Assembly: GCF_003952005.1 (NCBI RefSeq)
Contig: NZ_QXGJ01000007.1
Coordinates: 29,841 to 93,840 of the forward strand
DNA length: 64,000 bases
Direction: 5' to 3'
DNA from: Bifidobacterium callimiconis
GTDB taxonomy: Bacteria; Actinomycetota; Actinomycetes; Actinomycetales; Bifidobacteriaceae
Position 1 is the stretch's first letter; each line of letters opens with the position of its first letter. The notes under the pieces are model-generated. The model was not told the origin of the DNA, did no database searches, and saw only the letters and a list, made by a program, of their open reading frames with translations. The position numbers and the translations under genes were made by a program. Positions 1,746 to 30,923 of the stretch are shown piece after piece.

Positions 1746-1762
1746 TGGAAAACGGTGGAAAA
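1746..1762 (+). promoter_or_regulatory. TGGAAAA-N3-TGGAAAA direct-repeat motif (site a)
   Basis: tggaaaacggtggaaaa; a possible -10 (tatagt) lies ~25 bp downstream. Confidence 0.4.
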
Positions 1763-1871
1763 TATGGGGGATAGGTGGCGCTATAGTGACCGTGAAACTG
1801 TTGGCAACACTTGATTTTGCGAATCGGGACACAACGTTGTGATCCGCTTCACAAAAAACAGCTTCAAAAAA

Positions 1872-1888
1872 TGGAAAACGGCGGAAAA
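1872..1888 (+). promoter_or_regulatory. TGGAAAA-N3-(C)GGAAAA direct-repeat motif (site b), upstream of the GH31 gene
   Basis: tggaaaacggcggaaaa. Confidence 0.35.
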
Positions 1889-2060
1889 TGAAGTCCGACA
1901 AAACCGGCGTCGCCGCAGACTGGAACCATCACGTGGTCATGCCCACCGCGACAACGACATCGCATCAGGCATCCTGGCCGCGCCATCAACAACCGCGAAC
2001 GATAACGAACGACGACGCATCGTCATCGCACGCGACAAGCAGCCAAGCAAAGGAGCCGTA

Positions 2061-4556
2061 GTGAAAATCAGCACCCTGCTCACCGGTCTGGAGAACCATG
2101 GCGATCACCTCGACGTGACCACCAACGGCGCCAAATTCCAGGTGTATCTGATCGACGAGAACATCATCCGCATCCGCAGCACGTTCAAGGACGAGTTCCC
2201 CGAGGAGCTCAACTACGCGCTCGTCAAGACCGCGTGGGCCGACGCCTCCGACGAGCTCATGGCCGGCGAGCGCACCCGCGTGGAGCCCATCGCCATCGAG
2301 CTGACCGAGCCCGAACCGGGCGTGCACGCCGCGTCCACCGGCAAATACACGCTGCGCATCCACACCGACCCGTTCGCATTCGAGATCGTGGACGAGGCCG
2401 GCAACGTGCTGCACTCCGACCTGCCCGGCCGCTCCTTCATGGAGGACAGCCTCGGCCGCCCCACCCACTACGTGAAGATGGGCGACCACAACTACTTCTA
2501 CGGCTTCGGCGAGAAGAGCGGCGAGCTCAACAAGATCCGCCGTCGCATGCGCATGCACAACACCGATTCGCTCGGCTGGGACGCCTCCAAGTCGGACCCG
2601 CTGTACAAGATGATCCCGTTCTACATCAACTTCGACGCCGAACGGAAGCTCACCCACGGCCTGTTCTACAACAACTCCGCCGACTCCGTGTTCGACATGG
2701 ACTGCGAGCACTCCAACTACTGGCTGCGCTACAGCTACTTCCAGGCCGAGGCCGGCGACATCGACCTGTACTTCATCGGCGGCCCGACCATCAAGGACGT
2801 GGTGGAGCACTACACCGACCTGACCGGCAAGACCGCGATGATGCCGCTCAGCTCCCTCGGCTACATGGGATCCACCATGTTCTACACCGAGCTCGACAAG
2901 GACTGCGACAAGGCTATCGAGGACTTCGTCGACACGTGCGCCAAGTACGGCATCCCCGTCGACGGCTTCTTCCTGTCGTCCGGCTACACGTCGGGCGAGG
3001 ACGGCAAGCGCTACGTGTACAACTGGAACTACGATCGTTTCCCGAGCCCGTCCGGCTTCGTCGAGGCGCTCGAGGAGAAGGGCGTGCAGGTGTCGCCGAA
3101 CATCAAGCCCGGCATGCTCAACACGCATTACCTGACCGACGAGTTCGAAGAGGCGCGCGCCTACGTGCGCACCGCCGACGATTCCGCCTCGCAGGTGGAT
3201 CGCTACTGGGGCGGCCCCGCGCATTTCGTCGACTTCACCAGCCCGGCCGGCCGTGCCAAGTGGAGCGAGCACATGACCAAGCAGCTGCTCGATAACGGCA
3301 TCCGCTGGATCTGGAACGACAACAACGAGTACGAGATCGCCGACAACGACGCCATCACCGAGGCCGAGGGTCTCAAGCGTCCGATCGGCGAGATGAAGCC
3401 GCTCATGAGCACGCTCATGGCCAAGACCGCGCACACCGCGATCGAGGCGTTCGACGCCGACGTGCGTCCGTACGTGACCAACCGTGCCGGCTACGCGGGC
3501 ATCCAGCGCTACGCGCAGACCTGGTGCGGTGACAACGGCACCACGTGGACCAACCTCAAGTACAACGTGCCGACCATCCTCGGCATGGGTCTGTCCGGCG
3601 TGGCCAATCAGGGCGCCGACATCGGTGGATTCGACGGCCACGCGCCCGAGCCGGAACTGTTCGTGCGCTGGGTGCAGAACGGCGTGTTCCAGCCGCGCTT
3701 CTCCATCCACTCGTGCAACACCGACAACACGGTGACCGAGCCGTGGATGTACCCCGAGTACACGCACTACATCGCCGACGCGATCCGTCTGCGCTACCAG
3801 TTGGCGCCGTACTACTACTCGCTGCTGCATGAGGCGTCCGTCACCGGCGCGCCGATCATGCGTCCGCTCGTCTACGAGTTCCAGGACGATCCGAACACGT
3901 GGAACGAGAGCTTCGAGTTCATGATCGGCTCCTCGCTGCTCGTGGCCAACGTGCTTGACAAGGGCGCCGAGTCCATCGACGTGTACCTGCCGGCCGGCAC
4001 CGACTGGTATGACTTCGAGACCCGCCAGTGGCTCGCCGGCGGCCAGACGATCACCGTGCCGGTGACGCTCGCCAGCATCCCGATGTTCCTGCGCGCCGGT
4101 TCGATCGTGCCGCAGTGCCCGGGACTGACCAACCTGCACAACCAGACGATTGACCACCTGACCCTGCTGGTCGAGCCGGGTGAGAAGACCGAGTTCGGCC
4201 TGTACGAGGACGACGGCGTGACCCGCGCCTACGAGCATGGCGACTACCTGAACACCACGGTCACCGTGAACCCGTCCGCCGACGGCGTGGACATCGACTT
4301 CGCCCGCGAGGGCGCGTTCGAGACCCGCGTGAAGACCATGGAACTCGAGGTGCTGTGCCGCCGCATCGCCCCGCTGAGCGCCGAAGTGGCCGGACGTACG
4401 ATCCCGCGCTTCCTCAACTACGACAAGTTCCTCGCCGCCGACGAAGGCTGGTTCTTCGACGGACAGACCCGCAAGGCGCTGGTCCGCTACGCCAACCCGA
4501 ACGGCGACTACCGCGCCAGCCTGGTCTTCAAGGCCAAGGATCTGGTCTCGATCTGA
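2061..4556 (+). CDS. glycoside hydrolase family 31 (alpha-glucosidase/alpha-xylosidase type)
   Basis: GH31 signatures (…IRWIWNDNNE… nucleophile region; …QTWCGDN… acid/base region; GFGEKSG…); RBS aaaggag then GTG at 2061; paralogue of 18107..20680. Confidence 0.85.
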   Translation: MKISTLLTGLENHGDHLDVTTNGAKFQVYLIDENIIRIRSTFKDEFPEELNYALVKTAWADASDELMAGERTRVEPIAIELTEPEPGVHAASTGKYTLRIHTDPFAFEIVDEAGNVLHSDLPGRSFMEDSLGRPTHYVKMGDHNYFYGFGEKSGELNKIRRRMRMHNTDSLGWDASKSDPLYKMIPFYINFDAERKLTHGLFYNNSADSVFDMDCEHSNYWLRYSYFQAEAGDIDLYFIGGPTIKDVVEHYTDLTGKTAMMPLSSLGYMGSTMFYTELDKDCDKAIEDFVDTCAKYGIPVDGFFLSSGYTSGEDGKRYVYNWNYDRFPSPSGFVEALEEKGVQVSPNIKPGMLNTHYLTDEFEEARAYVRTADDSASQVDRYWGGPAHFVDFTSPAGRAKWSEHMTKQLLDNGIRWIWNDNNEYEIADNDAITEAEGLKRPIGEMKPLMSTLMAKTAHTAIEAFDADVRPYVTNRAGYAGIQRYAQTWCGDNGTTWTNLKYNVPTILGMGLSGVANQGADIGGFDGHAPEPELFVRWVQNGVFQPRFSIHSCNTDNTVTEPWMYPEYTHYIADAIRLRYQLAPYYYSLLHEASVTGAPIMRPLVYEFQDDPNTWNESFEFMIGSSLLVANVLDKGAESIDVYLPAGTDWYDFETRQWLAGGQTITVPVTLASIPMFLRAGSIVPQCPGLTNLHNQTIDHLTLLVEPGEKTEFGLYEDDGVTRAYEHGDYLNTTVTVNPSADGVDIDFAREGAFETRVKTMELEVLCRRIAPLSAEVAGRTIPRFLNYDKFLAADEGWFFDGQTRKALVRYANPNGDYRASLVFKAKDLVSI

Positions 4557-4639
4557 GCGGATCGGATGGAGGGGTCGGGGTCCTCGTCGGAGCGGACTTC
4601 GATCCCGCTGTGGGGATTGTGATTTCTGTCGTAGTGGGA

Positions 4640-4765
4640 TCCCTCCCTCTGTCACGACTTTCGTCGTGACATCTCCCTCCCCTGGAGGGAGAACGAAGAT
4701 GTCGGGCGTTGTGCTCCCTCCAAGGGAGGGAGCTGGCGCGCGCAGCGCGACTGAGGTAGGGATCG
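4640..4765. repeat. family-A repeat cluster (long variant with outer ccctccctc…gagggaggg arms plus a short unit)
   Basis: Nested palindromes: tccctccctctgtcacgac…gtcgtgacatctccctcc and gtgctccctccaagggagggagctggcgcgcgcagcgcgactgagg. Confidence 0.8.
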
Positions 4766-4911
4766 CATCCTCCGCGTCGCAGTCAACATCGCAATCCGCG
4801 CCACACCGCACCCGCACGCTCATCAGAATATGTGACCCGGTCGGGCGGCAGAACCGCCAAGAACGCCGCCCGCCGGGCCAGAAAATGCAGTCATACATTT
4901 AGGAGAGAGTA

Positions 4912-6186: not shown

Positions 6187-6255
6187 TCAACACCATGCGC
6201 ATGGCTTCCCTCCAACCGAGGGAAGCCATCGTCGTTTTCAGGGAAAGGAGCGAAC

Positions 6256-7383
6256 ATGAACCAGCAGAATCCAACCGCGTCGCAGACTCCGTCTTCACCG
6301 ACCCCGCAGACGCATCTGCAATCCCAGACCATCACGCTCAACGAGGACCGCAACGTCACGCTGTCCGCCTACCTGCAGGGCGTGGGAGGCCAGTTCCGCA
6401 TCGACCGCCGACCCGCCGTGATCGTCATCCCCGGCGGCGGCTACCAGTACTGCGCCGAACCCGAGGCCGAGCCCGTCGCCCTCGCCTTCATGCGCGCCGG
6501 CTACCACGCGTTCGTGCTGCGCTACTCCGTCGCCGAACACGCCGGCTGGCCCAACCAGCTCGACGACTACGAACAGGCCATGTCACTCATCCGCGCGCAC
6601 GCCGACGACTGGGGCATCATCCCCGACCGCATCGCCGTGTGCGGCTTCTCCGCCGGCGGCCACCTCGCCGGCTGCGCGGCCACCATGTCCAGCCCCGCGA
6701 CCCGCCCCAACGCCGCCATCCTCGGCTACCCGGCGCTGCTCGCATCCTCCATCCGCGGCTGCGATCCCGCCGCACCCGATGTGGTCGACGCCGTCGACGT
6801 CACCACCTGCCCCTGCTTCGTCTTCGGCACGCGCGACGACGCGCTCATCTCCGTCAACAATCTCGTGTGCATGATCGAGGCGCTCGCCGACAACGGCATC
6901 TCCTTCGAATCGCACATCTACGCGTTCGGCCCGCACGGATTCGGCTCCGCATCGCCGAGCGTGACCGACGTGAGCAAACTGTCCGGCCGTGCCCGCCGCT
7001 GGCTCGACGACGCGATCGACTGGCTGAGTGAGATCTTCGGCACGCTCACATTGAACGGCATGACCGAGCCGCGCTGCCTGCCGCACGTGAGTGCCGACTA
7101 CGAGCCGTCGTTCTCGCTTGACTGCACGTTTGGATACCTGCGTCAGAACGAGCAGGTGGCCGGCGTGATGAAGCCGTTCCTCGACTGGTTCGACGAGCAT
7201 TACCTCGACGTGGCCGCCAGCATCGGCCCGGCCATGCTGCACATGGCCACCACGCAGGGCAAGCCCGGCTTCTACGCGCTCGGCGACGCCCGCACCATGC
7301 ACGAGATCCTCGCCAACACCCCGTTCGACAGCGGGTACGCCGACGATCTCGCCGCCGCCCTCGCCGCCATCGACAAGCGCTAG
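6256..7383 (+). CDS. alpha/beta-hydrolase fold esterase (acetyl-esterase/carboxylesterase-like) with ~110-aa C-terminal extension
   Basis: VIVIPGGGY oxyanion region; GFSAGGHLA nucleophile elbow (GxSxG); RBS gggaaaggag. Confidence 0.7.
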   Translation: MNQQNPTASQTPSSPTPQTHLQSQTITLNEDRNVTLSAYLQGVGGQFRIDRRPAVIVIPGGGYQYCAEPEAEPVALAFMRAGYHAFVLRYSVAEHAGWPNQLDDYEQAMSLIRAHADDWGIIPDRIAVCGFSAGGHLAGCAATMSSPATRPNAAILGYPALLASSIRGCDPAAPDVVDAVDVTTCPCFVFGTRDDALISVNNLVCMIEALADNGISFESHIYAFGPHGFGSASPSVTDVSKLSGRARRWLDDAIDWLSEIFGTLTLNGMTEPRCLPHVSADYEPSFSLDCTFGYLRQNEQVAGVMKPFLDWFDEHYLDVAASIGPAMLHMATTQGKPGFYALGDARTMHEILANTPFDSGYADDLAAALAAIDKR

Positions 7384-7454
7384 CCAAGCACCCCTTCCGG
7401 CTCCCTTCTCTGAGGGGATCTAGAGGGCTGACCGAGGGGAGCGTCGGTCTCATA

Positions 7455-7646
7455 CTGCGGGTTCGTATCGATATGCGCACAAACCCGCAGTGAACACCAC
7501 CGTCCGCTGCGGGTTTGTAATGACGCATATACAAACCCGCAGCGAAAGAGACTCCACACTGCGGGTTCGTATCGATCCTTGTGCGAACCCGCAGTAAAGG
7601 CTGCTACTCACTGCGGGTTCGTAATGGTGCGTGTACAAATCCGCAG
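7455..7646. repeat. periodic array of four 36-bp hairpin repeats (stem ctgcgggtt/aacccgcag) separated by three 16-bp spacers; period 52 bp
   Basis: Units at 7455-7490, 7507-7542, 7559-7594 and 7611-7646; stems conserved, 18-nt loops related but variable; lies between convergent genes. Confidence 0.85.
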
Positions 7647-7660
7647 CACTCCCACCCCTC

Positions 7661-8761
7661 CTACATCATCGCCGACGCAGGTGCCGCTGCGATCGAATCA
7701 CGCCGCACGAACTCGGACCGCATGCGGATCGGCGTCAGATCACCGTCCGACACGTGCAGCAGCCGATCAATGATGCGGTTCGCGGCCGCCGCACCCAACT
7801 CGCGTCGTGGCACGCGAATGCTCGACATCTTCGGCGTGCAGATCTCGCACTTCGGGGTGTCGTCGATGCCGACCAACGACACCTGCCACGGCACGCGCAG
7901 TCGATGCGCCTCCAGGAACAGCATGAATGCGTACGCCACGTCGTCGTTGAACGCGATCGCCGCCGTGGTCGGCCGTGCCAGATACGCGGCGAACGCCTCC
8001 TCCGATCGTTTTCCCACCGGATACGCGCACGGCGTACGACGGAATTTCAGCCCTTCGCGCTTGCACGCGGTGAGAATCGCGTTCGCGCGCAGTCCGTTCT
8101 GCCATGAACTGTCCGGACCGGGCAGATACGTGATCTGCTGATGGCCGAGCCGCTTGAGCTCGCGCACCGCGTCGGCGATGCTGTCTCCGTCGTCCGCGTA
8201 CACCGACTGCACGCCGCCCACGATGCGGTTGATCACGGCCAGCGGCCGCACCTGCGCCACCTTGCGGATCGTGGCGTCCGACAGCCTCGACGCGCTCAGA
8301 ATGATGCCGTCCACATGCGGGATGGTGCGTTTGATGATCGCCAGCTCGCTCGCCTTGTCCTCCTCCGTGTCGCACACCATGAGACCGAAATTGCGTTCCG
8401 CGCACTCGCGCTGGATGCTGCGCGCGAACTGCGCCGACACCGGATTCTCCAGATCGGTCACCACCAGTGCGAGCAGTCCGCGCAGATGCTCCTCCTCGCG
8501 CGGGATGATCGACTCGCTGCGGTATCCCAGCCGTTTCGCCGTTTCAAGCACGCGGCCCAGCGTCTTCACGTTCACGCGCGACGGCTGCCGGAACGCGCGC
8601 GACACCGTGGTGGGGGAGACCCCGGCCGCGGCCGCCACATCCCATATCGTCGCGGTTCTCGACTCCTGAACGCCGCTCGCATTCGCAACGTCGCTGTTCG
8701 CGTTGTCGTTCGTCACGCCATCGTTTGTCACGCCATCGTGTTCGCTATCCATACCCGACAT
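7661..8761 (-). CDS. LacI-family transcriptional regulator
   Basis: N-terminal HTH (ATIWDVAAAAGVSPTTVSRAF) plus periplasmic-binding-like sugar-binding domain; start chosen at MSGMDSEH; N-terminal GVTNDGVTND tandem duplication. Confidence 0.8.
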   Translation of the reverse strand: MSGMDSEHDGVTNDGVTNDNANSDVANASGVQESRTATIWDVAAAAGVSPTTVSRAFRQPSRVNVKTLGRVLETAKRLGYRSESIIPREEEHLRGLLALVVTDLENPVSAQFARSIQRECAERNFGLMVCDTEEDKASELAIIKRTIPHVDGIILSASRLSDATIRKVAQVRPLAVINRIVGGVQSVYADDGDSIADAVRELKRLGHQQITYLPGPDSSWQNGLRANAILTACKREGLKFRRTPCAYPVGKRSEEAFAAYLARPTTAAIAFNDDVAYAFMLFLEAHRLRVPWQVSLVGIDDTPKCEICTPKMSSIRVPRRELGAAAANRIIDRLLHVSDGDLTPIRMRSEFVRRDSIAAAPASAMM

Positions 8762-8782
8762 CGTAACCAATGGGCGCAGAAT

Positions 8783-8799
8783 TGGAAAATCATGGAAAA
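8783..8799 (+). promoter_or_regulatory. TGGAAAA-N3-TGGAAAA direct-repeat motif (site c) in the divergent LacI/MATE promoter region
   Basis: tggaaaatcatggaaaa. Confidence 0.4.
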
Positions 8800-8895
8800 T
8801 GAACGATGATTCGTCGGCACATGCGCCAATATGCTGTTGTAGGCCATGTACGGTCGTACCATTCAATGAGGAAGACGACAGCGCGGGAGGGAACC

Positions 8896-10365
8896 ATGTC
8901 CGAACCGGTAGAACAGAACGACCCCGCCAAACTCACCGAACCCGTCGGCACCGTCAAACGCGACGATTCCATCGATCCCGCTCAGCCAACCGGCCCCTCC
9001 AAGCACGACGACTCCACCACCGATCTCACCGTCGGCAGTCCGCTGCTGCGCATTCTCATCTTCTCCATCCCGCTCGTGCTCGGCACGCTGTTCCAGCAGA
9101 TGTACAGCTTCGCCGACGCGGTGATCGTCGGTCGACTCATCGGCGACGACGCCCTGGGCGCGGTCGGCGTCACCTACCCGCTCAACTTCCTCATCCTCGG
9201 CTTCGTGCAGGGCGCGTGCATCGGCTTCTCCATCCCCGCCGCGCAAAGCTTCGGCGCCAAGGACGAGCGCGACTTCCGACGCTTCATGTGGAACGGCGCC
9301 TGGCTCGGCGTGATCCTCTCGGTCGTGTTCACCGCCGCCATGGTCCTGCTCGCCCGACCCATGCTCGAACTCATCGGCACGCCCGCCGAACTGCTCGACA
9401 TGGCCGTCGAATACATCGTCGTCATCTTCCTCGGCATCCCCACGGCCATCCTCTACAACCATTCCGCCGCCCTGCTGCGCGCTGTGGGCGACTCCAAGCA
9501 CCCGTTCTACTTCCTGCTCGTCGCATGCGTGGTCAACATCGTGCTCAACTACACGTTCATCGGCGTGATCGGCATGGGCGTGATCGGCTCCGCGCTCGCC
9601 ACCGTGATCGGCCAGACTCTGTCGGCCGTGCTCAACTGCTGGTGGGCGTTCGCCAGGATCGACATCTTCCAGGTGCATCGTGACGAGATGGGCTGGTCCG
9701 GCCATCACATTGGACGACTCTGCTACGTTGGCCTGCCGATGGGATTCGAATACTCGGTGTCGGCGATCGGCGCGGTGGTGATGCAGGATGCGATCAACTC
9801 GCTCGGCGCCGCCATGGTGACCGCGCAGACCGCCGGCGAGCGCATACGACAGATGTTCACGCTGCCGATGGAAAGCGTCGGCATGGCGATGGCCACGTAC
9901 GCCGGACAGAACTACGGCGCCCGCCGACTCGACCGCATCAAGCTCGGTCTGCGCGACGGCGTGATCATTCAGGGCGTGTACTGCGTGATCGTATGGGTGG
10001 TGATCTTCCTGTTCAAGGCGCCGATGTGCCGGTTCGTGCTCGGCGACACCAGTGCGGCCGTGTTCGACGGCGCGGTGGAGTACCTGTTCATCATGAGCTG
10101 CTTCTTCATCATCCACGGCTCGCTGATGATCTTCCGCAACACGTTGCAGGGCATGGGCTACAGCACGCATGCGATCGTGTCTGGCGTGGGCGAGCTGATC
10201 GGTCGTTCGCTCGGTGGCTGGATCACGATCATCGGCGGCGGATACTTGGCCGTCTGCTACTCGAATCCGCTGGCCTGGGGTCTGGCGCTGCTCTACTGCA
10301 TGGTGATGGTCACGGTGATCATCCGCCGCAAGCACCGCGACCCCGAATTCGCCGTCCTCGCCTAG
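8896..10365 (+). CDS. MATE-family efflux transporter
   Basis: 12-TM protein with MATE-type N-terminus (…LLRILIFSIPLVLGTLFQQMYSFADAVIVGRLIGDDALGAVGV…); strong RBS gggaggg before ATG 8896. Confidence 0.8.
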   Translation: MSEPVEQNDPAKLTEPVGTVKRDDSIDPAQPTGPSKHDDSTTDLTVGSPLLRILIFSIPLVLGTLFQQMYSFADAVIVGRLIGDDALGAVGVTYPLNFLILGFVQGACIGFSIPAAQSFGAKDERDFRRFMWNGAWLGVILSVVFTAAMVLLARPMLELIGTPAELLDMAVEYIVVIFLGIPTAILYNHSAALLRAVGDSKHPFYFLLVACVVNIVLNYTFIGVIGMGVIGSALATVIGQTLSAVLNCWWAFARIDIFQVHRDEMGWSGHHIGRLCYVGLPMGFEYSVSAIGAVVMQDAINSLGAAMVTAQTAGERIRQMFTLPMESVGMAMATYAGQNYGARRLDRIKLGLRDGVIIQGVYCVIVWVVIFLFKAPMCRFVLGDTSAAVFDGAVEYLFIMSCFFIIHGSLMIFRNTLQGMGYSTHAIVSGVGELIGRSLGGWITIIGGGYLAVCYSNPLAWGLALLYCMVMVTVIIRRKHRDPEFAVLA

Positions 10366-10378
10366 TTTCCGGGCATAG

Positions 10379-10418
10379 CCAGTTCACGCTATGAAACCCC
10401 CTCAAAATCGTGAACTGG
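10379..10418. repeat. 40-bp palindromic element ccagttcacg-N20-cgtgaactgg (copy 1)
   Basis: 10-bp perfect inverted arms; two tandem copies here and a third at 15135. Confidence 0.7.
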
Positions 10419-10464
10419 GACGCGGCGCAAAAACCGCATGATGCCAATGATCCACACCCGATTT

Positions 10465-10504
10465 CCAGTTCACGCTCTGATCCCCCTTCAAAATCGTGAA
10501 CTGG
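10465..10504. repeat. 40-bp palindromic element ccagttcacg-N20-cgtgaactgg (copy 2)
   Basis: As copy 1. Confidence 0.7.
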
Positions 10505-11516
10505 AATCGGCTGAATTTGCCATTCCGATGCTCGCCTGGGGCAGGAATGAGGTAGGGAAGCTTCTGATTGGCGTGGCACCGGGGTCGGCTGTGTGCAGAA
10601 TCCTGTCGATGCACATGGTGGTGCCGATTTCCAGCATCTCCCGCCGGGGAATGATGATGCTCGACAACGGTGGTTCGAACATCTGCGCCAGTCGCGTGCC
10701 ATCAATGCCGAGCACCGACACCTGCTCCGGAATGCTCACGTCATGCTGCTTGAGGAACGCCATGAATCCCAAGGCCATTACATCGTTGTAGGAGATCACC
10801 GCCGTGGTGGGATGGTCAAGAAACCCCTGAAAGTCATGCCATCCGCCGCGGTAGGTGGGTGTTTCGCACTGCATGCGTCGCACTTTGAGCCCGTATCGTA
10901 CGCAGAGCCTGGCGATGATTTGCCATCGCTGCCCCTCCTGCCACGAGAGTTTCGGTCCGCCGAGGTAGGTGATCTGCCGGTGCCGGAGGGTGACGAGCCG
11001 GCTGATCGCCTCCGTCAGACTTTCCGTCAGATCGGGCGTTACGCAGGGCAGACCTCCGACGAACCGGTTCACCACGCTGATCGGTTTGATCTGCGCCGCC
11101 TTGCGCAGCACGGTGTCGGACAGCCTTGGGGAGATCATCACCACGCCATCGGCAAGCTGCAGCGCATTGTCAAGCAGGCGTCGCTCCTGTTCGACACTTT
11201 CCTCGCTATCGCTGATGGTGACGGAAAAGCCGCGTCGGATACCGGTGGATTGCAGGGTGTGGATAGCGGTGGCGAACGCGGGATTGTTGATGTCGGGCAC
11301 GATGGCCGTAATCATGCCGTGCAGTTTTTCCTCGGTGAACGCCTCGACTTTGTCCGAGCGATATCCCAATTCCTGAGCTACGAGTCGTACGCGTTGCGCG
11401 GTTTTGTAATTGACCCGGCCGGGTCGTGATAATGCGCGGGACACGGTGGCGGGGGAGACACCGGCCACAGATGCCACTTCCTCAAGTGTGACCTTTTTAT
11501 GACTGTTGTGCGCCAT
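10488..11516 (-). CDS. LacI-family transcriptional regulator
   Basis: HTH VTLEEVASVAGVSPATVSRAL; start taken at MAHNSHKK (11516); alternative upstream Met possible. Confidence 0.8.
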   Translation of the reverse strand: MAHNSHKKVTLEEVASVAGVSPATVSRALSRPGRVNYKTAQRVRLVAQELGYRSDKVEAFTEEKLHGMITAIVPDINNPAFATAIHTLQSTGIRRGFSVTISDSEESVEQERRLLDNALQLADGVVMISPRLSDTVLRKAAQIKPISVVNRFVGGLPCVTPDLTESLTEAISRLVTLRHRQITYLGGPKLSWQEGQRWQIIARLCVRYGLKVRRMQCETPTYRGGWHDFQGFLDHPTTAVISYNDVMALGFMAFLKQHDVSIPEQVSVLGIDGTRLAQMFEPPLSSIIIPRREMLEIGTTMCIDRILHTADPGATPIRSFPTSFLPQASIGMANSADSSSRF

Positions 11517-11549
11517 GTCATTGCCGCCGTCATTGCGCTTGCTCATAGG

Positions 11550-11566
11550 CGTCAATTGTATTGACG
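11550..11566. promoter_or_regulatory. candidate LacI-type operator, perfect palindrome cgtcaat-tgt-attgacg
   Basis: 17-bp perfect inverted repeat in the divergent region between the LacI gene (10488..11516) and the GH gene (11748..). Confidence 0.4.
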
Positions 11567-11747
11567 AATCGTTGTGTGAGCGGGCTTCCGCCAAGAGGGC
11601 AGACGTCATTCATCTGATAAAAGTGTGCTACCCATCGTATATTTCCCGCAACTGCAAAACGTGGAAAGAAAATCATCTAAGTTCGCGAGTTCCTTACAGT
11701 GAGAAGCTGCATCGGCAAGGATGCCGATACCGAATAAGGAGAGAATC

Positions 11748-13265: not shown

Positions 13266-13278
13266 CGCTCCCTTTCTA

Positions 13279-13330
13279 CGTGCTCCCTCCTCGGGAGGGA
13301 GCTGTCCGACAATCGTCGGACTGAGGGAGG
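13279..13330. repeat. family-A repeat unit
   Basis: gtgctccctcctcgggagggagctgtccgacaatcgtcggactgagggaggg. Confidence 0.8.
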
Positions 13331-13402
13331 GCACAGGGCACCCCCGCACGCTCCACCTAATACTTCCGCTACAACTCAACCCACTCAAAGGAGAGAAAAA
13401 CC

Positions 13403-14845: not shown

Positions 14846-14972
14846 TCCCCATCTTGGCTCTCCTCTCCGAGGCTGAGTCCGTGAAGTAAACGCCAGAGGC
14901 GTTTATAGGAATCAGGCGAGCCGACAGGCAAGCAGATAAAACGCGGCCGAAGGCCGTCCTTTCTTACAGGTT

Positions 14973-15082
14973 GAGCTGTCGGCGTAGCCGACTGAGGGGA
15001 GTGAGCGGTCAAACCCCTATGCGGGCGCATTCTCCCCTCAGTCCGCCTCCGGCGGCCAGCTCCCCTCAAAGAGGGGAGCCAG
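14973..15082. repeat. family-B repeat cluster (gaggggagctgtcggcgtagccgactgaggggag variant)
   Basis: ctcccctca/gaggggag nested palindromes. Confidence 0.75.
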
Positions 15083-15092
15083 ATCTACTCGA

Positions 15093-15128
15093 GTCCCTTC
15101 CGTTCCTCCCTTCGGAAGGGACTTTTTT
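15093..15128 (+). terminator. rho-independent terminator (gtcccttccg…cggaagggac + TTTTTT)
   Basis: Read from the sequence; could serve either convergent gene. Confidence 0.6.
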
Positions 15129-15134
15129 ATGTTT

Positions 15135-15174
15135 TCAGTTCACGAAATGCAGTCCTCTCGAAATCGTGAACTGG
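15135..15174. repeat. 40-bp palindromic element cagttcacg-N20-cgtgaactg (copy 3)
   Basis: Same arms as the copies at 10379 and 10465. Confidence 0.7.
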
Positions 15175-15184
15175 GATTGGCGGG

Positions 15185-16192: not shown

Positions 16193-16488
16193 GCTAGCAG
16201 CGGCGGTGCGCGGGGAGCGTTCTCACGGTGATCCTTCGGTTGTTTCCATGGTCATGCGGTCATCCTCGTTTTCCCCGATCCGGTTGCACCTCTGTGCGGC
16301 CATCACCCCCGTCTGTACCCCCTATTCGCATACCTGTTTTCATAAAACCCGACCGTTTACCGTCAATCGTCGCCCGACGATGTAAATCACTGCAAACCGG
16401 AATCCGCCACGACTTGTCAAGCCACACTGAAATCGTGCAACAACCGGCAACGACGTCGGTTCGCCGCAGAGAAGAAACGGAAACAGTC

Positions 16489-18012
16489 ATGGCAGACAAT
16501 AACAACCATATTCCCAGCGTGTATCGGCCGCGCAAGATCACGGTCGCACGCGCCATCGGCTACGGTATGCCGGACATGATGGGCGGCGGCGCATTCACGC
16601 TCATCGGCGCGTGGCTGCTGTTCTTCTGGACCACCTATGCGGGTCTGACCGCCATGGAGGCGGCCTCCATCCTGGCCATCGCCCGCGTGGCCGACGCCGT
16701 GATCAGCCTGTTCATGGGCGCGATCACCGATAATCTCTACCGCTTTAAGATCGGCAAGAAGTTCGGCCGTCGCCACTTCTTCCTGCTGATCGGCTCCCCG
16801 CTTATGCTCGAGTTCATCCTGCTGTGGATCACCGGCCTGAACTACTGGTACTACCTGATCAGCTACGTGCTGTTCGAGCTCGTGGCCGCCATGGTGCTCA
16901 TCCCGTGGGAGACGCTGCCCACCGAGATGACCGAGGACTACAACAAGCGCACGATGCTGTCCACCGCGCGTCTGGTGATCTCCTCCGGTAGCTCGTTCCT
17001 GGCCACGTTCCTGCCCGGCCAGCTGTTCAAGATCTTTGGCGAGGACAATCCGATGTCGTACACGTTCAACGCGATCGTGTTCGCCGTGATCTACATGGTG
17101 TCCGTGTTCATCGCCTACAAGACCACGTGGGAGCGCCAGATCACCCCGGAGATGGCCGCCAAGCTCGAGGCCAAGGCCAAGGAGGGCGCCGGCCGTACGT
17201 TCGGCGAGCAGCTCAAGGCCTACATCGCCACCGTGAAGCTGCGCACGTTCCGCAAGCACCTGATCGTCTACCTGTGCACCTTCACCGCCAAGGACACGTT
17301 CAACGCCGTGTTCGCCTACTTCGTGGTCTCCGTGCTCGGCCTGTCCGCCGGCGTTTCCAGCGGCGTGCTGTCGCTGAACATCATCGGCCTGCCGTTGACC
17401 ATCCTCGTTGGCTACCTGCTGGTCAAGTTCAGCCCGCGCTGGGTGTGGTGCGTCGGCATCGTGGTCGAGCTCGTCGCCTTGGTCGGCTTCTGGGTGCTCT
17501 CCGGCACCAGCATGAACGACCTGACGATGTGGCTGTACGTGGTCGGTCTGGTCTACAACATCGGCCTGGGCGCCGTGATCGCCACCCCGTGGAACGTGTT
17601 CCCGATGATCCCGGATCTCGACGAGCTGGTGTCCGGCGAGCATCACGAGGGCCTGTACGCCTCCGTCATGACGTTCGTGCGCAAGTCCACGGTCGCCGTC
17701 GCCACGTTCGTGGTCGGTCTGGTGCTCACCGAGGGCGGCTACGTCGAAGGCCAGATCGAGCAGTCGGTCGGCACCCAGCACACGATCACCGGTATCCTGG
17801 TGTTCGGCACCGGCGCGCTGCTGCTCGTCGCCCTGCTCACCGCGGTCACGTTCCGTCTGAACAAGACCACGCACACCGTGGTCAAGGACGAGCTCAACCG
17901 TCTGCGCAACGGCGGCCACAAGGACGACGCCCCCAAGGAGACCCGCGAGCTCATCGAGAAGCTCACCGGCACCAAGTGGGAGCACATCTGGGCCACCAAC
18001 CCCAACCAGTGA
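16489..18012 (+). CDS. GPH-family sugar:cation symporter
   Basis: MelB/GPH-like sequence; start at MADNNNH; C-terminus homologous to the 1..465 fragment. Confidence 0.8.
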   Translation: MADNNNHIPSVYRPRKITVARAIGYGMPDMMGGGAFTLIGAWLLFFWTTYAGLTAMEAASILAIARVADAVISLFMGAITDNLYRFKIGKKFGRRHFFLLIGSPLMLEFILLWITGLNYWYYLISYVLFELVAAMVLIPWETLPTEMTEDYNKRTMLSTARLVISSGSSFLATFLPGQLFKIFGEDNPMSYTFNAIVFAVIYMVSVFIAYKTTWERQITPEMAAKLEAKAKEGAGRTFGEQLKAYIATVKLRTFRKHLIVYLCTFTAKDTFNAVFAYFVVSVLGLSAGVSSGVLSLNIIGLPLTILVGYLLVKFSPRWVWCVGIVVELVALVGFWVLSGTSMNDLTMWLYVVGLVYNIGLGAVIATPWNVFPMIPDLDELVSGEHHEGLYASVMTFVRKSTVAVATFVVGLVLTEGGYVEGQIEQSVGTQHTITGILVFGTGALLLVALLTAVTFRLNKTTHTVVKDELNRLRNGGHKDDAPKETRELIEKLTGTKWEHIWATNPNQ

Positions 18013-18106
18013 TCGCATAAATCTCCGGCCGCCGGCCCTCTCTCCCCGGCGGCTGCCCAACCTTACTGCTCCTCAGAAAAACCAAAGGACACCGAAGGAC
18101 CTTTCA

Positions 18107-20680: not shown

Positions 20681-20693
20681 CCTCCTCTCCCTC

Positions 20694-20915
20694 GTGCTCC
20701 CTCCGAGGGAGGGAGCTGGCCGGCTACGCCGGACTGAGGGAGGGATCTTGCTCCTCGCAGGCTTCACCTCATCAGTCAGCCTTCGGCTGCCAGCTTCCCC
20801 TCAAGGGGAAGCCGGGTCATCCCTCCTTCATCCTTCCCCTCAAGGGGAAGCCCGGTCATCTCTCTTCTTCTCCTTCCCCTTGAGGGGAAGGAGTCGGCGT
20901 CAGCCGACGGATGAG
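20694..20915. repeat. repeat cluster: family-A unit + family-C array (ttcccctcaaggggaag hairpins, cggctgccagc…gccgacggatgaggtg)
   Basis: Read directly; begins 14 bp after the GH31 stop. Confidence 0.8.
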
Positions 20916-20957
20916 GTGACCGCCAGCCCCTCCTCCGGGAAACCCAACGAAAACCAC

Positions 20958-22055
20958 TCACCCGATCCCCGCCGCGATAAGTGGATTGATGGCGGCGATG
21001 CTGTCCCGTTGCACGAACGACGATTCGAAATGCAACGGCACGGCATCGCCGCCATCGTCGTTTACGCCGGCCGTTCCGTCAGCGCCGCCGATTCCACCGC
21101 CGGGCGCGATGTGCAGCAGCCGGTCGATCACGATCTTTGCCGCCGCATGGCCCATGTCGCGCCGCGGGAACGATATCGTGCTCAACGACGGCGTGATCGC
21201 CCGTCCCATGGGAATGTCGTCGATGCCCATCACCGAGATCTGCTGCGGCACGCCGATGCCGTGCGATTCGAGGAACCGTATGAACTCCACGGCGATGGCG
21301 TCGTTGAACGCGATCACCGCCGTGGTCGGCCGCTCCATGAACGCGTCGAACGCCGCGGGGGCGTTGCCGTCCAATGGGTAGGCGCAGGGCAGGAGTCGGC
21401 AAGTCAGGCCCATCGTCTGGCATGTGGTGAGGATCGTGTTGCGTCGAACGCCGTTCTGCCATGAGTTGTCCGGTCCGGCGATGTAGCTGATCGACCGGTG
21501 CCCGAGCCGTGCGAACACGCCGATGGCCCGGCGTAGGCTCGGCGCGCAGTCGAAGGTCACGCTGGTCACGCCCGGTACCACGCGGTTGAGTACCACTACG
21601 GGTTTGAGCTGCGCGAGTTTGCGAATGGCCGTGTCGGGCATGCGCGTGGAGTCGAGGATCACGCCGTCCACGTGGTTGAGACTGCGTTTGATGATGGCGA
21701 GCTCGGCCGATGTGTCCTCTTCGGTGTCGTTGACCATGAGCCCGTAGTTCTTTTCCACGCAGTACTGCTGCACGCCGCGCGCGTATTGTGCGGAAATCGG
21801 ATTCTCCAGATCGGTGACCACGATCGAGATGAGTCCGCGCAGTTCGTCGTCCTCACGGCTGTGGTGCACGATCGTCTCGGTGCGGTAGCCCAGCTCTTCC
21901 GCGGCGTCATGTACGCGGCGCAGTGTGGCGGCGCTCACCTTGCCGGGGCGTGAGAACGCTCTCGATACGGTGGCGATGGACACACCGGCCGCCTGTGCCA
22001 CGTCCCAGATCGTCGCCTGGCCCGGCTTCGCCCGTTCCGTTCGATTGTCGTTCAT
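20958..22055 (-). CDS. LacI-family transcriptional regulator
   Basis: HTH ATIWDVAQAAGVSIATVSRAF; RBS gggagg; downstream member of a two-LacI operon. Confidence 0.8.
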   Translation of the reverse strand: MNDNRTERAKPGQATIWDVAQAAGVSIATVSRAFSRPGKVSAATLRRVHDAAEELGYRTETIVHHSREDDELRGLISIVVTDLENPISAQYARGVQQYCVEKNYGLMVNDTEEDTSAELAIIKRSLNHVDGVILDSTRMPDTAIRKLAQLKPVVVLNRVVPGVTSVTFDCAPSLRRAIGVFARLGHRSISYIAGPDNSWQNGVRRNTILTTCQTMGLTCRLLPCAYPLDGNAPAAFDAFMERPTTAVIAFNDAIAVEFIRFLESHGIGVPQQISVMGIDDIPMGRAITPSLSTISFPRRDMGHAAAKIVIDRLLHIAPGGGIGGADGTAGVNDDGGDAVPLHFESSFVQRDSIAAINPLIAAGIG

Positions 22056-22071
22056 GAGCCTCCCGCCGTTG

Positions 22072-23103
22072 CTATTCCACTGCCGGGATCGGCTGATCCG
22101 GCGCCGGTCCCACGCTTTCGCGTTCGATGAACGTCGAGTATCGTACGACTGGCGTGGTGCTGCCGTCCGACGTGTGCAGAATCTTGGAGATGAGCTTGCT
22201 CGACGCGTCGGAGCCCATCTCCTCGCGCGGGATGTGCACAGTCGCCAGCGGCGGATTGCTGCGCGCCGACTCCGGCGTATCGTCGATGCCGATCACCGAC
22301 ACCTGTTCGGGGACGCGGATGTCGGCCGAGGCGAGCAGATCCATGAACTGCAGGGCGAAGATGTCGTTGAACAGCACCACGGCGGTGGTGGGGCTGCGCA
22401 TGAACTCGCGGAACGCGTCTTCCATGAGCGAGCCGGTGGCGCGTGTGGGCAGATGCGGGCCGGCGATGCGGCGCAGTTTGATCTGTTCGCGTTGGCATGC
22501 CACGAGCAGCGCCTGCCAGCGCAGTCCGTTCTGCCAGGAATTGTCGGGTCCGGCCACGTAGCTGATCGATCGGTGGCCGAGCGCCTTGAGCCGTCGCACG
22601 ATCTTGGTGAGCACGGGGCGATCGTCGCTGATCACTGACTGCACGCCGCTGACGAGTCGGTTGACCACTACGGTCGGGCGCATCTGCGCGGCCTTGCGCA
22701 CGGTGGAGTCGGACAGTCGCGACGACGTGAGGATCAGTCCGTCCACCTGCGAGGTCATGCGCATGATCGTGCTGCGTTCCAGATCGCGGTTTTCCTCGGT
22801 GATGGCCGTGAGCAGAATGAAGTTGCGGTCGAGACACGGCTTCTGCATGCCGTCCACGAAGTCGGCGAACACGGAGTATTTGAGATCGCTGGCGGTGGTG
22901 AGGATCATGCCACGTAGCGCATCGTCGTTCTGCGGTTCGAGATTCTTGGTGCGATACCCCAGTCGTTCCGCCACTTCGCGCACTTTCGTGGCGGTTTCCA
23001 GATTCACCCTGCCGGGTCGTGACAGTGCTCGGGAGACCGTGGTGGGGGAGACTCCTGCCTCCTTCGCCACGTCGCGGATGGTGACCTTCATGGATTCGCT
23101 CAT
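22072..23103 (-). CDS. LacI-family transcriptional regulator
   Basis: HTH VTIRDVAKEAGVSPTTVSRAL; stop 16 bp upstream of the next LacI gene. Confidence 0.8.
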   Translation of the reverse strand: MSESMKVTIRDVAKEAGVSPTTVSRALSRPGRVNLETATKVREVAERLGYRTKNLEPQNDDALRGMILTTASDLKYSVFADFVDGMQKPCLDRNFILLTAITEENRDLERSTIMRMTSQVDGLILTSSRLSDSTVRKAAQMRPTVVVNRLVSGVQSVISDDRPVLTKIVRRLKALGHRSISYVAGPDNSWQNGLRWQALLVACQREQIKLRRIAGPHLPTRATGSLMEDAFREFMRSPTTAVVLFNDIFALQFMDLLASADIRVPEQVSVIGIDDTPESARSNPPLATVHIPREEMGSDASSKLISKILHTSDGSTTPVVRYSTFIERESVGPAPDQPIPAVE

Positions 23104-23239
23104 CGGTATGCTCCTATGCTGTTCGTCGGGCGGATGCGACCTTCCTCGGCCCGTCCGTCCGTTTTCATGCTAACCGCTGCCCGCGCCGCATTCCAGTATT
23201 TTCACATGAATAGTTATCGACAGGTAAGTTTCGTGACAT

Positions 23240-23680
23240 GGTTTTCCTTCCCTTTGAGAGGAAACCCAGCCGTCCCTCCTTTTCCTTCCCCTCGGGAAAC
23301 TCGGTAGGGCTGCTCGCTCTTCTCCATCCTTCCCCTTGAGGGGAAGGTGTCGGCGCTAGCCGACGGATGAGGTGCAACGCTTCTGCTTGATTCCCTCGTG
23401 CTCCCTCCGAGGGAGGGAGCTGGCCGGCTACGCCGGACTGAGGGAGGGCACGCATCCTTTCAGGTCCTATTCCCACCTCATCAGTCAGCCTTCGGCTGCC
23501 AGCTTCCCCTCAAGGGGAAGCCCGCTCGTCCCTCCTTTTTCCTTCCTCTCAGCGGTAAGCCCGACAAGGTGTCCATCTTTTCATCCTTTCTCTCAACGGG
23601 AAACTCGGTAAGGCCGCTCGTCCTTCTCCATCCTTCCCCTTGAGGGGAAGGTGTCGGCGCAGCCGACGGATGAGGTGATT
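23240..23680. repeat. large repeat cluster (family-C + family-A + family-C)
   Basis: Multiple ccccttgaggggaagg hairpins and a gtgctccctccgagggagggagctggccggctacgccggactgagggaggg unit. Confidence 0.8.
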
Positions 23681-23731
23681 CGCATCAGCGAACGCAAGAT
23701 ACGCATCGGCACAGCCAATTCCTCACCCCTG

Positions 23732-23748
23732 TGGAAAACTATGGAAAG
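23732..23748 (+). promoter_or_regulatory. TGGAAAA-N3-TGGAAAG motif (site e), with conserved ATAAAGTGAGAA box ~30 bp downstream
   Basis: tggaaaactatggaaag … gcataaagtgagaatcac; upstream of the GH2 gene. Confidence 0.45.
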
Positions 23749-23920
23749 AAAATCCACCCCCGTTTTTCTCGCATAAAGTGAGAATCACTGGAACGGAACC
23801 GACAACGAGGTACCGGTACCGCTCCTTCAACCTCGACCAAGCACACACTCAACCGAACTCACCTCAGTATGGTCCGCGCGCATCGATCGCACGCCGACCC
23901 GGAACAAAAGGATGGCACAC

Positions 23921-26224: not shown

Positions 26225-26351
26225 CTTCCAGCCCGGTCCGACAGGACCCTGTGCATTCGTATCGCCTTGTGCGATGCCGCTATATCCAGAGCCCCGAAGC
26301 GTGTTCCCTTCCCCACGCTTCGGGGCGTTTTCATACTCTCCTTCGATCCCA

Positions 26352-26702
26352 TCGTGCTCCCTCCGAGGGAGGGAGCTGTCCGGCTACGCCGGACTGAGGG
26401 AGGGCTCGCATCCTTTCCGGTTCCATTCCCGCCTCATCAGTCAGCCTTCGGCTGCCAGCTTCCCCTCAAGGGGAAGCCGAGCAAAGCCGTCCGCCCTTCG
26501 TCATCCTTCTCTTCAAGGGGAAGCCCGGCAAGGCCGGCCATTCTTCCCCTCAAGGGGAAGCCGGGTCGTCCCTCCTTCTTCCTTCCCCTTGAGGGGAAGG
26601 CGTCGGCGCAGCCGACGGATGAGGTGCATCACTTTCGCCTGATCCCATCGTGCTCCCTCCATGGGAGGGAGCTGTCCGGCAAAGCCGGACTGAGGGAGGG
26701 AT
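26352..26702. repeat. large repeat cluster (family-A, family-C array, family-A)
   Basis: Read directly. Confidence 0.8.
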
Positions 26703-26746
26703 CCAACGCCCCGAAAACCTCCCACTCACCCCATCCCCACCTCCCG

Positions 26747-26763
26747 CGGAAACTCGTGGAAAC
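26747..26763 (+). promoter_or_regulatory. (C)GGAAAC-N3-TGGAAAC motif (site f), with conserved ATAAAGTGGGAA box downstream
   Basis: cggaaactcgtggaaac … gtataaagtgggaaccac; upstream of the GPH transporter/uidA. Confidence 0.45.
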
Positions 26764-27000
26764 ATTTTCGTCGCCATGTTTCCCCGTATAAAGTGGGAAC
26801 CACGCAGCGAGGCGATATGAACAACATTCATCCACGCTGCAAAGAGAAGTAACAGCAACATACCCACGTCACGCACAAACAGGGCCGTGCGTGTTCGACT
26901 ACCGCTTTGAAACCTGGCAAGTGAAAAAGCGCATCCGCACGAGGAAGCGTGGATGTTTGGTCTCCGAAAAAATCTGGCTCTGTCATGCCCAAGGGAGGGA

Positions 27001-28449: not shown

Positions 28450-28503
28450 TAATCCTCGAAGGGCTCCCACCACGGGAGCCCTTCCCATTACCCCTCGCTT
28501 TAC

Positions 28504-28555
28504 GTGCTCCCTCCAGGGGAGGGAGCTGTCACGCGAACGCGTGACTGAGGGAGGG
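28504..28555. repeat. family-A repeat unit
   Basis: gtgctccctccaggggagggagctgtcacgcgaacgcgtgactgagggaggg. Confidence 0.8.
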
Positions 28556-28623
28556 CTTCCATACCCGCGCACCTATCCAAATCTGTCCATCCATCCACTC
28601 ACCCCAACCGAAAGAAGACAACG

Positions 28624-30450: not shown

Positions 30451-30472
30451 CGCCCGCGCCCTTCCCGCTGCA

Positions 30473-30895
30473 TGCTCCCTCCTCGGGCCATCCCTTCGTG
30501 CTCCCTATGTGGAGAGGCCGCGCAGCGACTCCATCTCTCCGCGCTCTCTCCCAAGGGCGTCTGCCAGCGGCCTCATCTCTCCGTGCTCCCTCCTCGGGAG
30601 GGAGCTGGCCGGCGTAGCCGGACTGAGGGAGGGTTTCGGCCCTATTCCCACCTCATCCGTCGGCTGACGCCGCCACCTTCCCCTCAAGGGGAAGGATGAA
30701 GGAGGAATGACCTGGCTTCCCCTTAAGGGGAAGCTGGCAGCAAGGGGAAGGATGAAGGAAGGACGACTTGGCTTCCCCTTAAGGGGAAGCTGGCAGCCGA
30801 AGGCTGACTGATGAGGTGCAGCGCTTTCACCCGATGATGTTGTTGCGCTCCCTCCCAGGGGCTGACCGGCGTAGTGAGGGGGTCACACCCTCACC
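30473..30895. repeat. large repeat cluster (family-A units + family-C hairpin array)
   Basis: Read directly. Confidence 0.8.
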
Positions 30896-30906
30896 TCTTT
30901 AAAAAT

Positions 30907-30923
30907 TGGAAAATAATGGAAAG
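30907..30923 (+). promoter_or_regulatory. TGGAAAA-N3-TGGAAAG motif (site g)
   Basis: tggaaaataatggaaag, directly after the repeat cluster; followed by a ~500-bp lower-GC non-coding stretch. Confidence 0.35.

Follow-up and report, generated by a model that had tools for sequence, protein, structure and literature searches.

Conserved head-to-tail TGGAAAA boxes in a glycoside/glucuronide island of Bifidobacterium callimiconis are probable operators of LacI paralogues predicted to lack a hinge helix

A reconstruction of 1303 LacI regulons yielded palindromic motifs throughout, 1173 of them with a central CG (PMC4052901). CytR of Escherichia coli and Vibrio, itself a member of the LacI family, recognizes half-sites with a TGCAA core in direct or inverted arrangement on a single helical face, in some cases spaced by about one turn (PMC3454398). 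Here we describe a stretch of 64,000 nucleotides from Bifidobacterium callimiconis (the window; contig NZ_QXGJ01000007.1, positions 29,841 to 93,840 of assembly GCF_003952005.1) that carries a series of TGGAAAA-N3-TGGAAAA boxes. These boxes are real, evolutionarily conserved regulatory sites 5' of sugar-utilisation genes. The compared sequences argue, with a probability of about 0.75, that they are the operators of four LacI paralogues encoded in the same island (Table 1), and the best reading appears to be that of head-to-tail LacI operators with CytR as the closest relative in design. A preliminary description of this DNA had instead postulated an additional regulator of the response-regulator or activator type, encoded outside the window. 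Motif statistics, conservation, positional architecture, clade association, half-site homology and hinge loss were computed here.

How does the locus compare with the known systems? The LacI proteins of the island resemble the canonical LacI, GalR and PurR regulators in being local by their targets, in their autoregulation and in the type of half-site (TG..AA(A/C)-CG). However, a canonical LacI operator is an even palindrome of 16 to 22 bp with a central CG, at which the hinge helix inserts, whereas the window proteins appear to have no hinge helix and the conserved unit of their presumed operators is a direct repeat. CytR shares with the window proteins a non-canonical linker and a similar recognition helix (VSTATVSRAL in CytR, VSP[AT]TVSRAL in the window), its TGCAA core can be set beside the CTGCAAA and TGGAAAA of the window, and it is the second-best NCBIfam match. 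The two are not orthologues, as the match to the NCBIfam CytR model reaches 127 bits against a cut-off of 436. CytR combines variable spacing and a weak motif with cooperation with flanking CRP, whereas the window has a strict 10-bp period and strongly conserved half-sites; no flanking CRP-type sites were seen there, although no systematic CRP search was made, and one TGTGA-N6-TCACA is present at 1838-1853. The pathways differ as well, nucleosides for CytR and glycosides or glucuronides for the window genes. Boxes of the OmpR/PhoB type are direct repeats of 6 to 7 bp with a period of 10 to 11 bp that lie beside the -35 element or replace it, and the window motif likewise consists of direct repeats with such a period near -35. 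Unlike OmpR/PhoB boxes, it co-varies and co-transfers with a LacI clade and has no associated response-regulator gene.

By Pfam domain assignment, positions 1-31000 of the window form a glycoside/glucuronide island. It begins with genes for a GH31 enzyme, an MFS transporter and an esterase and a LacI gene divergent from a MATE gene, continues with a second LacI gene, set divergently to a GH79-like gene and a GPH transporter gene, an EamA gene, and a GPH transporter gene with a second GH31 gene, and ends with two more LacI genes, a GH2 gene, and a GPH transporter gene with uidA. Exact TGGAAA-N4-TGGAAA pairs occur four times in the window (1746, 8783, 23732 and 30907) against an expectation of 0.01, and none of 100 shuffled windows reached four. 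With up to three mismatches to the 17-mer TGGAAAANNNTGGAAAA two more sites join the exact set, 1872 (TGGAAAACGGCGGAAAA) and 26747 (CGGAAACTCGTGGAAAC), and all six are on the plus strand. The six paired sites reported in the preliminary description were therefore all recovered with a strict 10-bp spacing, but TGGAAA is strictly present in both halves at only four of them, C replacing T in the second half of 1872 (CGGAAAA) and the first half of 26747 (CGGAAAC). A half-site listed at 11662 is indeed present but does not stand alone: a degenerate full site begins at 11652 and has it as its second half. A position-weight matrix built from 15 sites found one further site in the window, at 23189-23205 on the minus strand, 5' of the LacI gene 22072-23103. 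The relaxed pattern thus gives a total of eight sites within positions 1-31000, each oriented towards its downstream gene and all intergenic in a window with a coding fraction of 81%; for site 1872 this holds if the GH31 gene, whose open reading frame (ORF) ends at 4556, starts at about 2050, as the offset of the N-terminal Pfam domain indicates. The same scan of the other 33 kb of the window, including strong housekeeping promoters (rplJ, rpoB region), returned no comparable site. A 17.8-bit match at 41159 on the minus strand was taken as the T-run of a terminator and not as an operator site, and the GPH/GH31 promoter at 16230-16490, where only a weak CTGCAAACCGGAATCC is present, was left uncounted.

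Spacing was surveyed for direct YGGAAA pairs with periods of up to 30 in 250 kb of non-redundant Bifidobacterium DNA. Period 10 occurred 18 times and any other period at most twice, so that the period is exactly 10 in all 18 strong pairs and a variable spacer as in CytR is not seen. Might the motif nevertheless be the end of a repeat array, or a chance or compositional feature of intergenic DNA with no regulatory role? Intergenic DNA is richer in AT than coding DNA, and the sites at 23732, 26747 and 30907 lie directly 3' of hairpin arrays resembling repetitive extragenic palindromic (REP) elements. We regard this as highly improbable in view of the very large excess over shuffles and the strict 10-bp spacing; moreover, no array adjoins the sites at 1746, 1872, 8783 and 11652, and the orthologous sites in four loci from other genomes (L003, L004, L009 and L014; L numbers denote collected loci) keep the motif without arrays. 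The possibility that the motif is a repeat terminus, which the preliminary description had named as grounds for abandoning its proposal, was thereby tested and does not hold. The REP-like arrays themselves (GCTCCCTCCGAGGGAGGGAGC, CCCCTCAAGGGGAAG and others) lie 3' of most operons in the island, and the motif is not part of them.

For comparative footprinting, which the preliminary description had called for, loci were collected around GPH orthologues and around LacI homologues and aligned with the motif as anchor. The motif is present at orthologous promoters of B. vansinderenii, B. tissieri, B. saimiriisciurei, B. primatium, B. eulemuris and a bat-associated Bifidobacterium metagenome contig, in Actinotignum urinale and on a 5.3-kb LacI-GPH-uidA contig; in all, seven Bifidobacterium species besides that of the window, and Actinotignum, retain the 17-mer. 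Pairwise identity among orthologous promoters is 0.86-0.96 for the 17-mer and 0.92-1.0 for the half-sites, whereas the flanks (40 bp upstream and 24 bp downstream) have drifted to 0.25-0.50. Together with the eight intergenic sites, these values bear out the earlier proposal of a cis-regulatory motif that unites the glycoside/glucuronide island. The 17-mer of the GH2 promoter is invariant in five species, and the site was found in B. eulemuris and Actinotignum too; the 17-mer at 8783 is identical in L022 and reads TGGAAAACCGTGGAAAA in L003 and L004; the orthologue of the degenerate site 11652 in another Bifidobacterium (L022) is CTGCAAAGCGTGGAAAG; the weak site at 23189-23205 is kept in two species (L002, L005) as CGGAAAATACTGGAATG, with a score of 16.3; and orthologues of the GPH-uidA operator occur in L002-L005. 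Spacers are conserved promoter by promoter (CTA for GH2, CTCG for GPH-uidA, and TCA or CCG for MATE), and the GH79-like unit has CTGCAAA as a conserved variant of the first half-site.

The sites also share a promoter architecture, as had been proposed. A TAnnnT hexamer, including the one in the ATAAAGTG(A/G)GAA box, starts 42 to 44 bp after the start of the motif in 20 of 25 sites. The conserved box noted about 30 bp past sites 23732 and 26747 contains TAAAGT at +42 in both cases; we read it as the -10 region, and TAnAGT is kept in the orthologues of the GH2 promoter while the spacer diverges. The motif pair spans roughly -53 to -37 of the target promoters, whose -35 hexamers are poor. Read on the minus strand, the TTTCCA of site 8783 provides a -35-like element for the divergent LacI promoter, 17 bp from TACGAT (ATCGTA at 8760-8765 on the plus strand). 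The mRNA of this LacI gene (minus strand, 8754-8800) is apparently leaderless, with the ATG 7 nt past the -10 element, and the listed ORF start at 8866 is too far upstream.

Two A4 tracts at about -50 and -40, one helical turn apart and at a fixed distance from the -10 element in those 20 of 25 sites, with an orientation that always follows the gene, could also form a promoter module of RNA polymerase, either phased A-tracts contacted by the alpha subunits, like an UP element, or an unusual extended -35 element. We consider this very unlikely. The conserved letters take in TGG or GG besides the A-tracts, the motif varies between species and RNA polymerase does not, and inverted or palindromic arrangements in relatives are required by neither alpha subunits nor sigma factor. 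Moreover, the motif occurs only in the vicinity of one LacI clade, and neither the control loci nor the 33 kb that make up the rest of the window contain it. An extracytoplasmic function (ECF) sigma factor or an ordinary -35 element was discarded because the distance to any -10 element, 25-27 bp, is too long. Two further known box types were compared. DnaA boxes resemble TTTTCCACA-like strings, but the last two box positions are not conserved here, and the lone oriC-like match (Actinotignum L009, 14433) is an unrelated chance match. MraZ boxes are direct repeats with a 10-bp period, but the present motif is in a different sequence register and its sites lie away from the dcw cluster.

Which protein, then, travels with the motif? 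As is usual for canonical LacI operators, LacI-family genes are co-localised with it: the island encodes four, which are 40-53% identical to each other and belong to one clade. A motif lies upstream of each LacI transcription unit in the window (8783, 11652 and 23205/23732), which fits the autoregulation that is usual for local LacI regulators, more than three quarters of which are autoregulated (PMC4052901). A clade gene is adjacent to the motif in L004, L006, L008, L009, L014, L015 and L022. The LacI genes adjoining the motif in L006, Actinotignum (L009), B. eulemuris (L014) and L022 are of the same clade and 38-56% identical to those of the window, compared with about 26% for an unrelated Actinotignum LacI gene. 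Actinotignum belongs to another family, keeps TGGAAAA and has the gene order LacI, TGGAAAATGATGGAAAA, GH2, GPH, whereas in B. oedipodis and B. vespertilionis the half-sites have drifted to GTGAAAC and CTGAAAC with unchanged layout and -10 distance. Drift within Bifidobacterium and retention in Actinotignum indicate that the motif follows the cassette and not the host, and the compared sequences suggest that regulator and operator moved jointly by horizontal transfer between Bifidobacteriaceae and Actinomycetaceae. A global factor or RNA polymerase would hardly be expected to permit such drift. The Actinotignum urinale cassette (LacI-operator-GH2-GPH) was seen in L009, at 6372-11440, and in L024, with the exact TGGAAAATGATGGAAAA and a GPH protein 78% identical to that of the window. 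The contigs L006 and L007 (5303 and 5329 bp) are near-identical LacI-GPH-uidA contigs of about 5.3 kb with shared motif and flanks; they were deposited in metagenome-assembled genomes labelled Spirochaetia and Pleomorphomonas and are probably mis-binned actinobacterial DNA.

The half-site itself connects the motif to this clade. A metagenome scan with the clade alignment yielded 23 sister-clade loci (33-48% identity), whose proteins share the recognition helix AGVaPSTVSRA and in most cases have a canonical hinge. Classical LacI palindromes with the same half-site (TGGCAAGCGTTTGCCA, CTGCAAACGTTTGCAG and GTGCAACCGGTTGCAC) lie 5' of the sister-clade LacI genes, and relatives of the clade have 16-bp palindromes with a central CG. 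The half-site of the window thus matches that of relatives with the same recognition helix (TGGAAAA(C) in the window, and CTGCAAAACG). Exactly 10 bp beyond the sister-clade palindrome there is an extra TTGCCA (TGGCAAgcgtTTGCCA-N4-TTGCCA in L035, L036, L038, L042 and L043), oriented as its neighbouring half-site and placed directly 5' of the LacI gene; related layouts occur in L026, L030, L037 and L040. Read towards the LacI gene, this layout of three half-sites is that of the GPH-uidA operator in Bifidobacterium (TGGAAAT-G-TTTCCA-TCG-TTTTCCG in L006). Only the GPH-uidA sites keep a partial palindrome (TGGAAAC-ATTTCCA in L006, centre CA); L006 has the better palindrome TGGAAACATTTCCA and retains the third, inverted half-site, of which ATTTTCG at 26764 is the remnant in the window. 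Hence, half-sites are found both direct and inverted, as for CytR, with direct pairs at all window sites and inverted partners in L006, in L004 (3082/3086) and in the sister-clade loci. Direct YGGCAA pairs at 10 bp number 11 in nine of the 23 sister-clade loci (121 kb), and 309 kb around 57 unrelated LacI genes contain none.

These findings bear on the regulator postulated in the preliminary description. Such a protein, encoded elsewhere and perhaps a response regulator of the OmpR/PhoB type or some other activator, would bind as a head-to-tail dimer and activate the regulon, while the LacI proteins would use other palindromes. The strict 10-bp period, the single orientation towards the gene and a site centre near -45, 5' of weak -35 hexamers, would suit it, as would the candidate palindromes in some leaders (1830-1841, 23810-23821 and 8846-8862). 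Yet these palindromes differ between promoters and are not of the TGGCAA type of the clade, and in about 20 motif-bearing Bifidobacterium and Actinotignum loci we found no gene for a response regulator or another common transcription factor, the LacI clade being the only constant regulator. The motif crosses into Actinotignum, and into the 5.3-kb LacI-GPH-uidA contig alongside the LacI gene; a conserved global factor would resist the half-site drift seen between Bifidobacterium species; LacI relatives that share the recognition helix have this very half-site in their palindromes; and around unrelated LacI genes no direct pairs at 10 bp occur. We therefore think that a separate regulator is unlikely. 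A 144-aa ORF at 643-1077 was considered as a hidden regulator and dismissed, as it is acidic and has no family match and no helix-turn-helix.

The preliminary description had set the LacI repressors aside on the grounds that they would have to bind palindromes. Two findings speak against this premise: the window proteins appear to have lost the hinge helix, which is what imposes palindromic binding, and relatives with the same recognition helix have a palindrome with a direct copy offset by 10 bp. The hinge-helix signature Y-x-P-N/S-x-x-A-R-x-L, which follows the helix-turn-helix head, is missing from the window protein: LGYRTKNLE--PQNDDALRG has a 3-residue deletion relative to RbsR and PurR and no A-R-x-L. 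In the family alignment the hinge decays stepwise from LGYEPNRAARGL to LGYRTKNLEPQ. AlphaFold2 predicts coil at residues 49-64 of the window protein, with a predicted local distance difference test score (pLDDT) below 50 at residues 53-60, and a helix at residues 50-56 of a canonical relative (P0117) from the same alignment. According to these models, the Bifidobacterium branch of the clade is without a hinge helix and has a short, disordered linker.

We hypothesize that the operators and their regulators evolved and work as follows. An actinobacterial LacI clade with the recognition helix AGVSP[TS]TVSRA would read TG[GC][AC]AA half-sites, and its starting state, represented by soil relatives with a normal hinge helix, would be the palindrome TGGCAAGCGTTTGCCA with one more half-site 10 bp beyond. 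In the Bifidobacterium branch the hinge helix would have been lost and the outer inverted half-site would have decayed in most promoters, leaving under selection the head-to-tail pair with its spacing of one helical turn. In the dimer, the two DNA-binding heads would lie head-to-tail in neighbouring major grooves of the same DNA face, the flexible linker allowing one head to turn round, as in CytR. Besides the identity of the binder and this dimer geometry, we infer repression rather than activation, since the pair lies at about -53 to -37 of the targets and shares sequence with the -35 region of the promoters that drive the divergent LacI genes. Target and divergent LacI promoters would both most probably stay repressed on binding until a sugar or glucuronide effector releases the repressor. 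The conserved 3-bp spacers and the half-site variants of each promoter probably assign each paralogue its own target.

In its widest form our proposal is that a hinge-less LacI branch in primate- and bat-associated bifidobacteria switched from palindromes to strictly phased head-to-tail pairs, that the intermediate, a palindrome with an extra half-site, can still be seen in soil actinobacteria and the GPH-uidA promoters, and that four paralogues run the glycoside/glucuronide island, including a small RNA, and tell their targets apart by 3-bp spacer and half-site variants. We hold this full scenario to be about as probable as its opposite.

Several points weigh against the assignment of the boxes to the LacI paralogues. 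The case is comparative throughout, and the Bifidobacterium scan covered about 250 kb. A dimeric protein would face three half-sites, and four paralogues with near-identical recognition helices and half-sites in one cell pose a problem of specificity. The position of the motif just 5' of the -35 position, together with the poor -35 hexamers, is a geometry just as common for activator sites. Other palindromes in the leaders could be the true LacI operators (CACAACGTTGTG at 1830, GGTACCGGTACC at 23810 and GTACGGTCGTAC at 8848). More distant members of the clade, P0063 of B. primatium (L017) and one from Raineyella (L018), are without a clear direct pair, as is the uxaC cluster of Actinomycetaceae (L019). 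Finally, the loss of the hinge is not required for a direct arrangement, as the extra direct half-site is found as well with sister-clade proteins whose hinge is intact.

As regards specificity, a simple correlation of recognition-helix residues (PT, PA or AA) with half-site variants was tried and failed, B. eulemuris having PA yet TGGAAA. The distant B. primatium clade member (38% identity) is encoded next to uxuB, uxaA and GPH genes; at 7020-7060 of L017, TGGAAAAACGTTTGAAC lies within a longer inverted repeat (ATGATGGT...ACCATGAT) and would seem to be the same half-site in palindromic form.

Table 1. Coordinates of the putative operators, promoter elements, regulator genes and RNA or repeat elements in the window
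Feature	Position	Strand	Remarks
Putative operator TGGAAAACGGTGGAAAA	1746..1762	+	Exact match, intergenic; first of two 5' of the GH31-MFS-esterase operon; TATAGT at +36
Putative operator TGGAAAACGGCGGAAAA	1872..1888	+	One mismatch; second copy 5' of GH31
Putative operator TGGAAAATCATGGAAAA	8783..8799	+	Between LacI gene (7661-~8760, minus) and MATE gene (plus), divergent
Degenerate putative operator CTGCAAAACGTGGAAAG	11652..11668	+	Between LacI gene 10488-11609 (minus) and GH79-like/GPH operon; TACAGT at +43
Weak putative operator GTGAAAATACTGGAATG	23189..23205	-	Position-weight matrix score 12.6; 5' of LacI gene 22072-23103
Putative operator TGGAAAACTATGGAAAG	23732..23748	+	Exact match; 5' of GH2 gene (start 23921)
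-10-like TAAAGT, GH2 promoter	23774..23779	+	Within ATAAAGTGAGAA box; +42 from motif start
Putative operator CGGAAACTCGTGGAAAC and remnant third inverted half-site ATTTTCG	26747..26770	+	5' of GPH-uidA unit
-10-like TAAAGT, GPH-uidA promoter	26789..26794	+	Offset +42
Putative operator TGGAAAATAATGGAAAG	30907..30923	+	Exact match; 3' of uidA; heads promoter with TACGAT 30951-30956
LacI-clade regulator 1 (hinge LGYRSESIIPREEEHLRG)	7661..8760	-	Pfam, paralogy, alignment
LacI-clade regulator 2	10488..11609	-	Pfam, paralogy, alignment
LacI-clade regulator 3	20958..22055	-	Pfam, paralogy, alignment
LacI-clade regulator 4	22072..23103	-	Pfam, paralogy, alignment; no predicted hinge helix, residues 49-64 coil
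Putative small/leader RNA, ~165 nt	30960..31125	+	Directly 3' of 30907 motif and promoter; GC-rich terminator hairpin and U-run
REP-like arrays	~14850-15100, 20690-20930, 23240-23690, 26330-26700, 30460-30880		

The putative RNA at the end of the island is apparently a member of the regulon of the motif. It has a fold z-score of -5.7, with its core also kept in B. vansinderenii and B. tissieri, there upstream of rplJ; an Rfam search of 30960-31125 found no family, even at E-values up to 1. Several leaders contain additional elements. Between the two motif copies of GH31 a perfect LacI-type palindrome (CACAACGTTGTG, 1830-1841) overlaps the TGTGA-N6-TCACA mentioned above and resembles CGACAACCGGTTGTTG, found 5' of sister-clade LacI genes (L026, L030); it may be the operator of another regulator. 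The 5' leader of GH2 contains a block, ACGAGGTACCGGTACC at 23806-23821, that is kept in six Bifidobacterium species and, in part, in Actinotignum (GAGGTTACCGG) and could be an operator or an RNA element. The MATE leader has a near-palindrome, ATGTACGGTCGTACCAT at 8846-8862, which is identical in the distinct Bifidobacterium metagenome contig L022 despite differing surroundings. Of the proteins encoded in the island, the GPH transporter shares 99% identity with its B. vansinderenii counterpart, and the uidA protein matches contig JAFEJY010000005.1 of assembly GCA_018555655.1.

We found no description of this LacI clade or its motif in the literature, and a literature search with the motif string and Bifidobacterium returned only primer matches. 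The large comparative reconstructions of LacI regulons searched for palindromes only (PMC4746261, PMC4052901), so a head-to-tail clade would escape them and leave gaps in what is mapped of the regulons of gut bacteria. In bifidobacteria, sugar use is switched mainly by regulators of the LacI family, which are also a favoured chassis of synthetic biology. If our reading is true, the natural series from a hinge with a palindrome and an extra half-site to a hinge-less protein with a direct pair shows a dimeric repressor in the course of changing the symmetry of its operator, and it would provide a second operator geometry, after CytR, for the engineering of orthogonal repressors. The work also defines the regulon of a glucuronide/glycoside island, which is relevant because beta-glucuronidase activity matters in the recycling of drugs and hormones in the gut, and it suggests that an unannotated small RNA is controlled in the same way.

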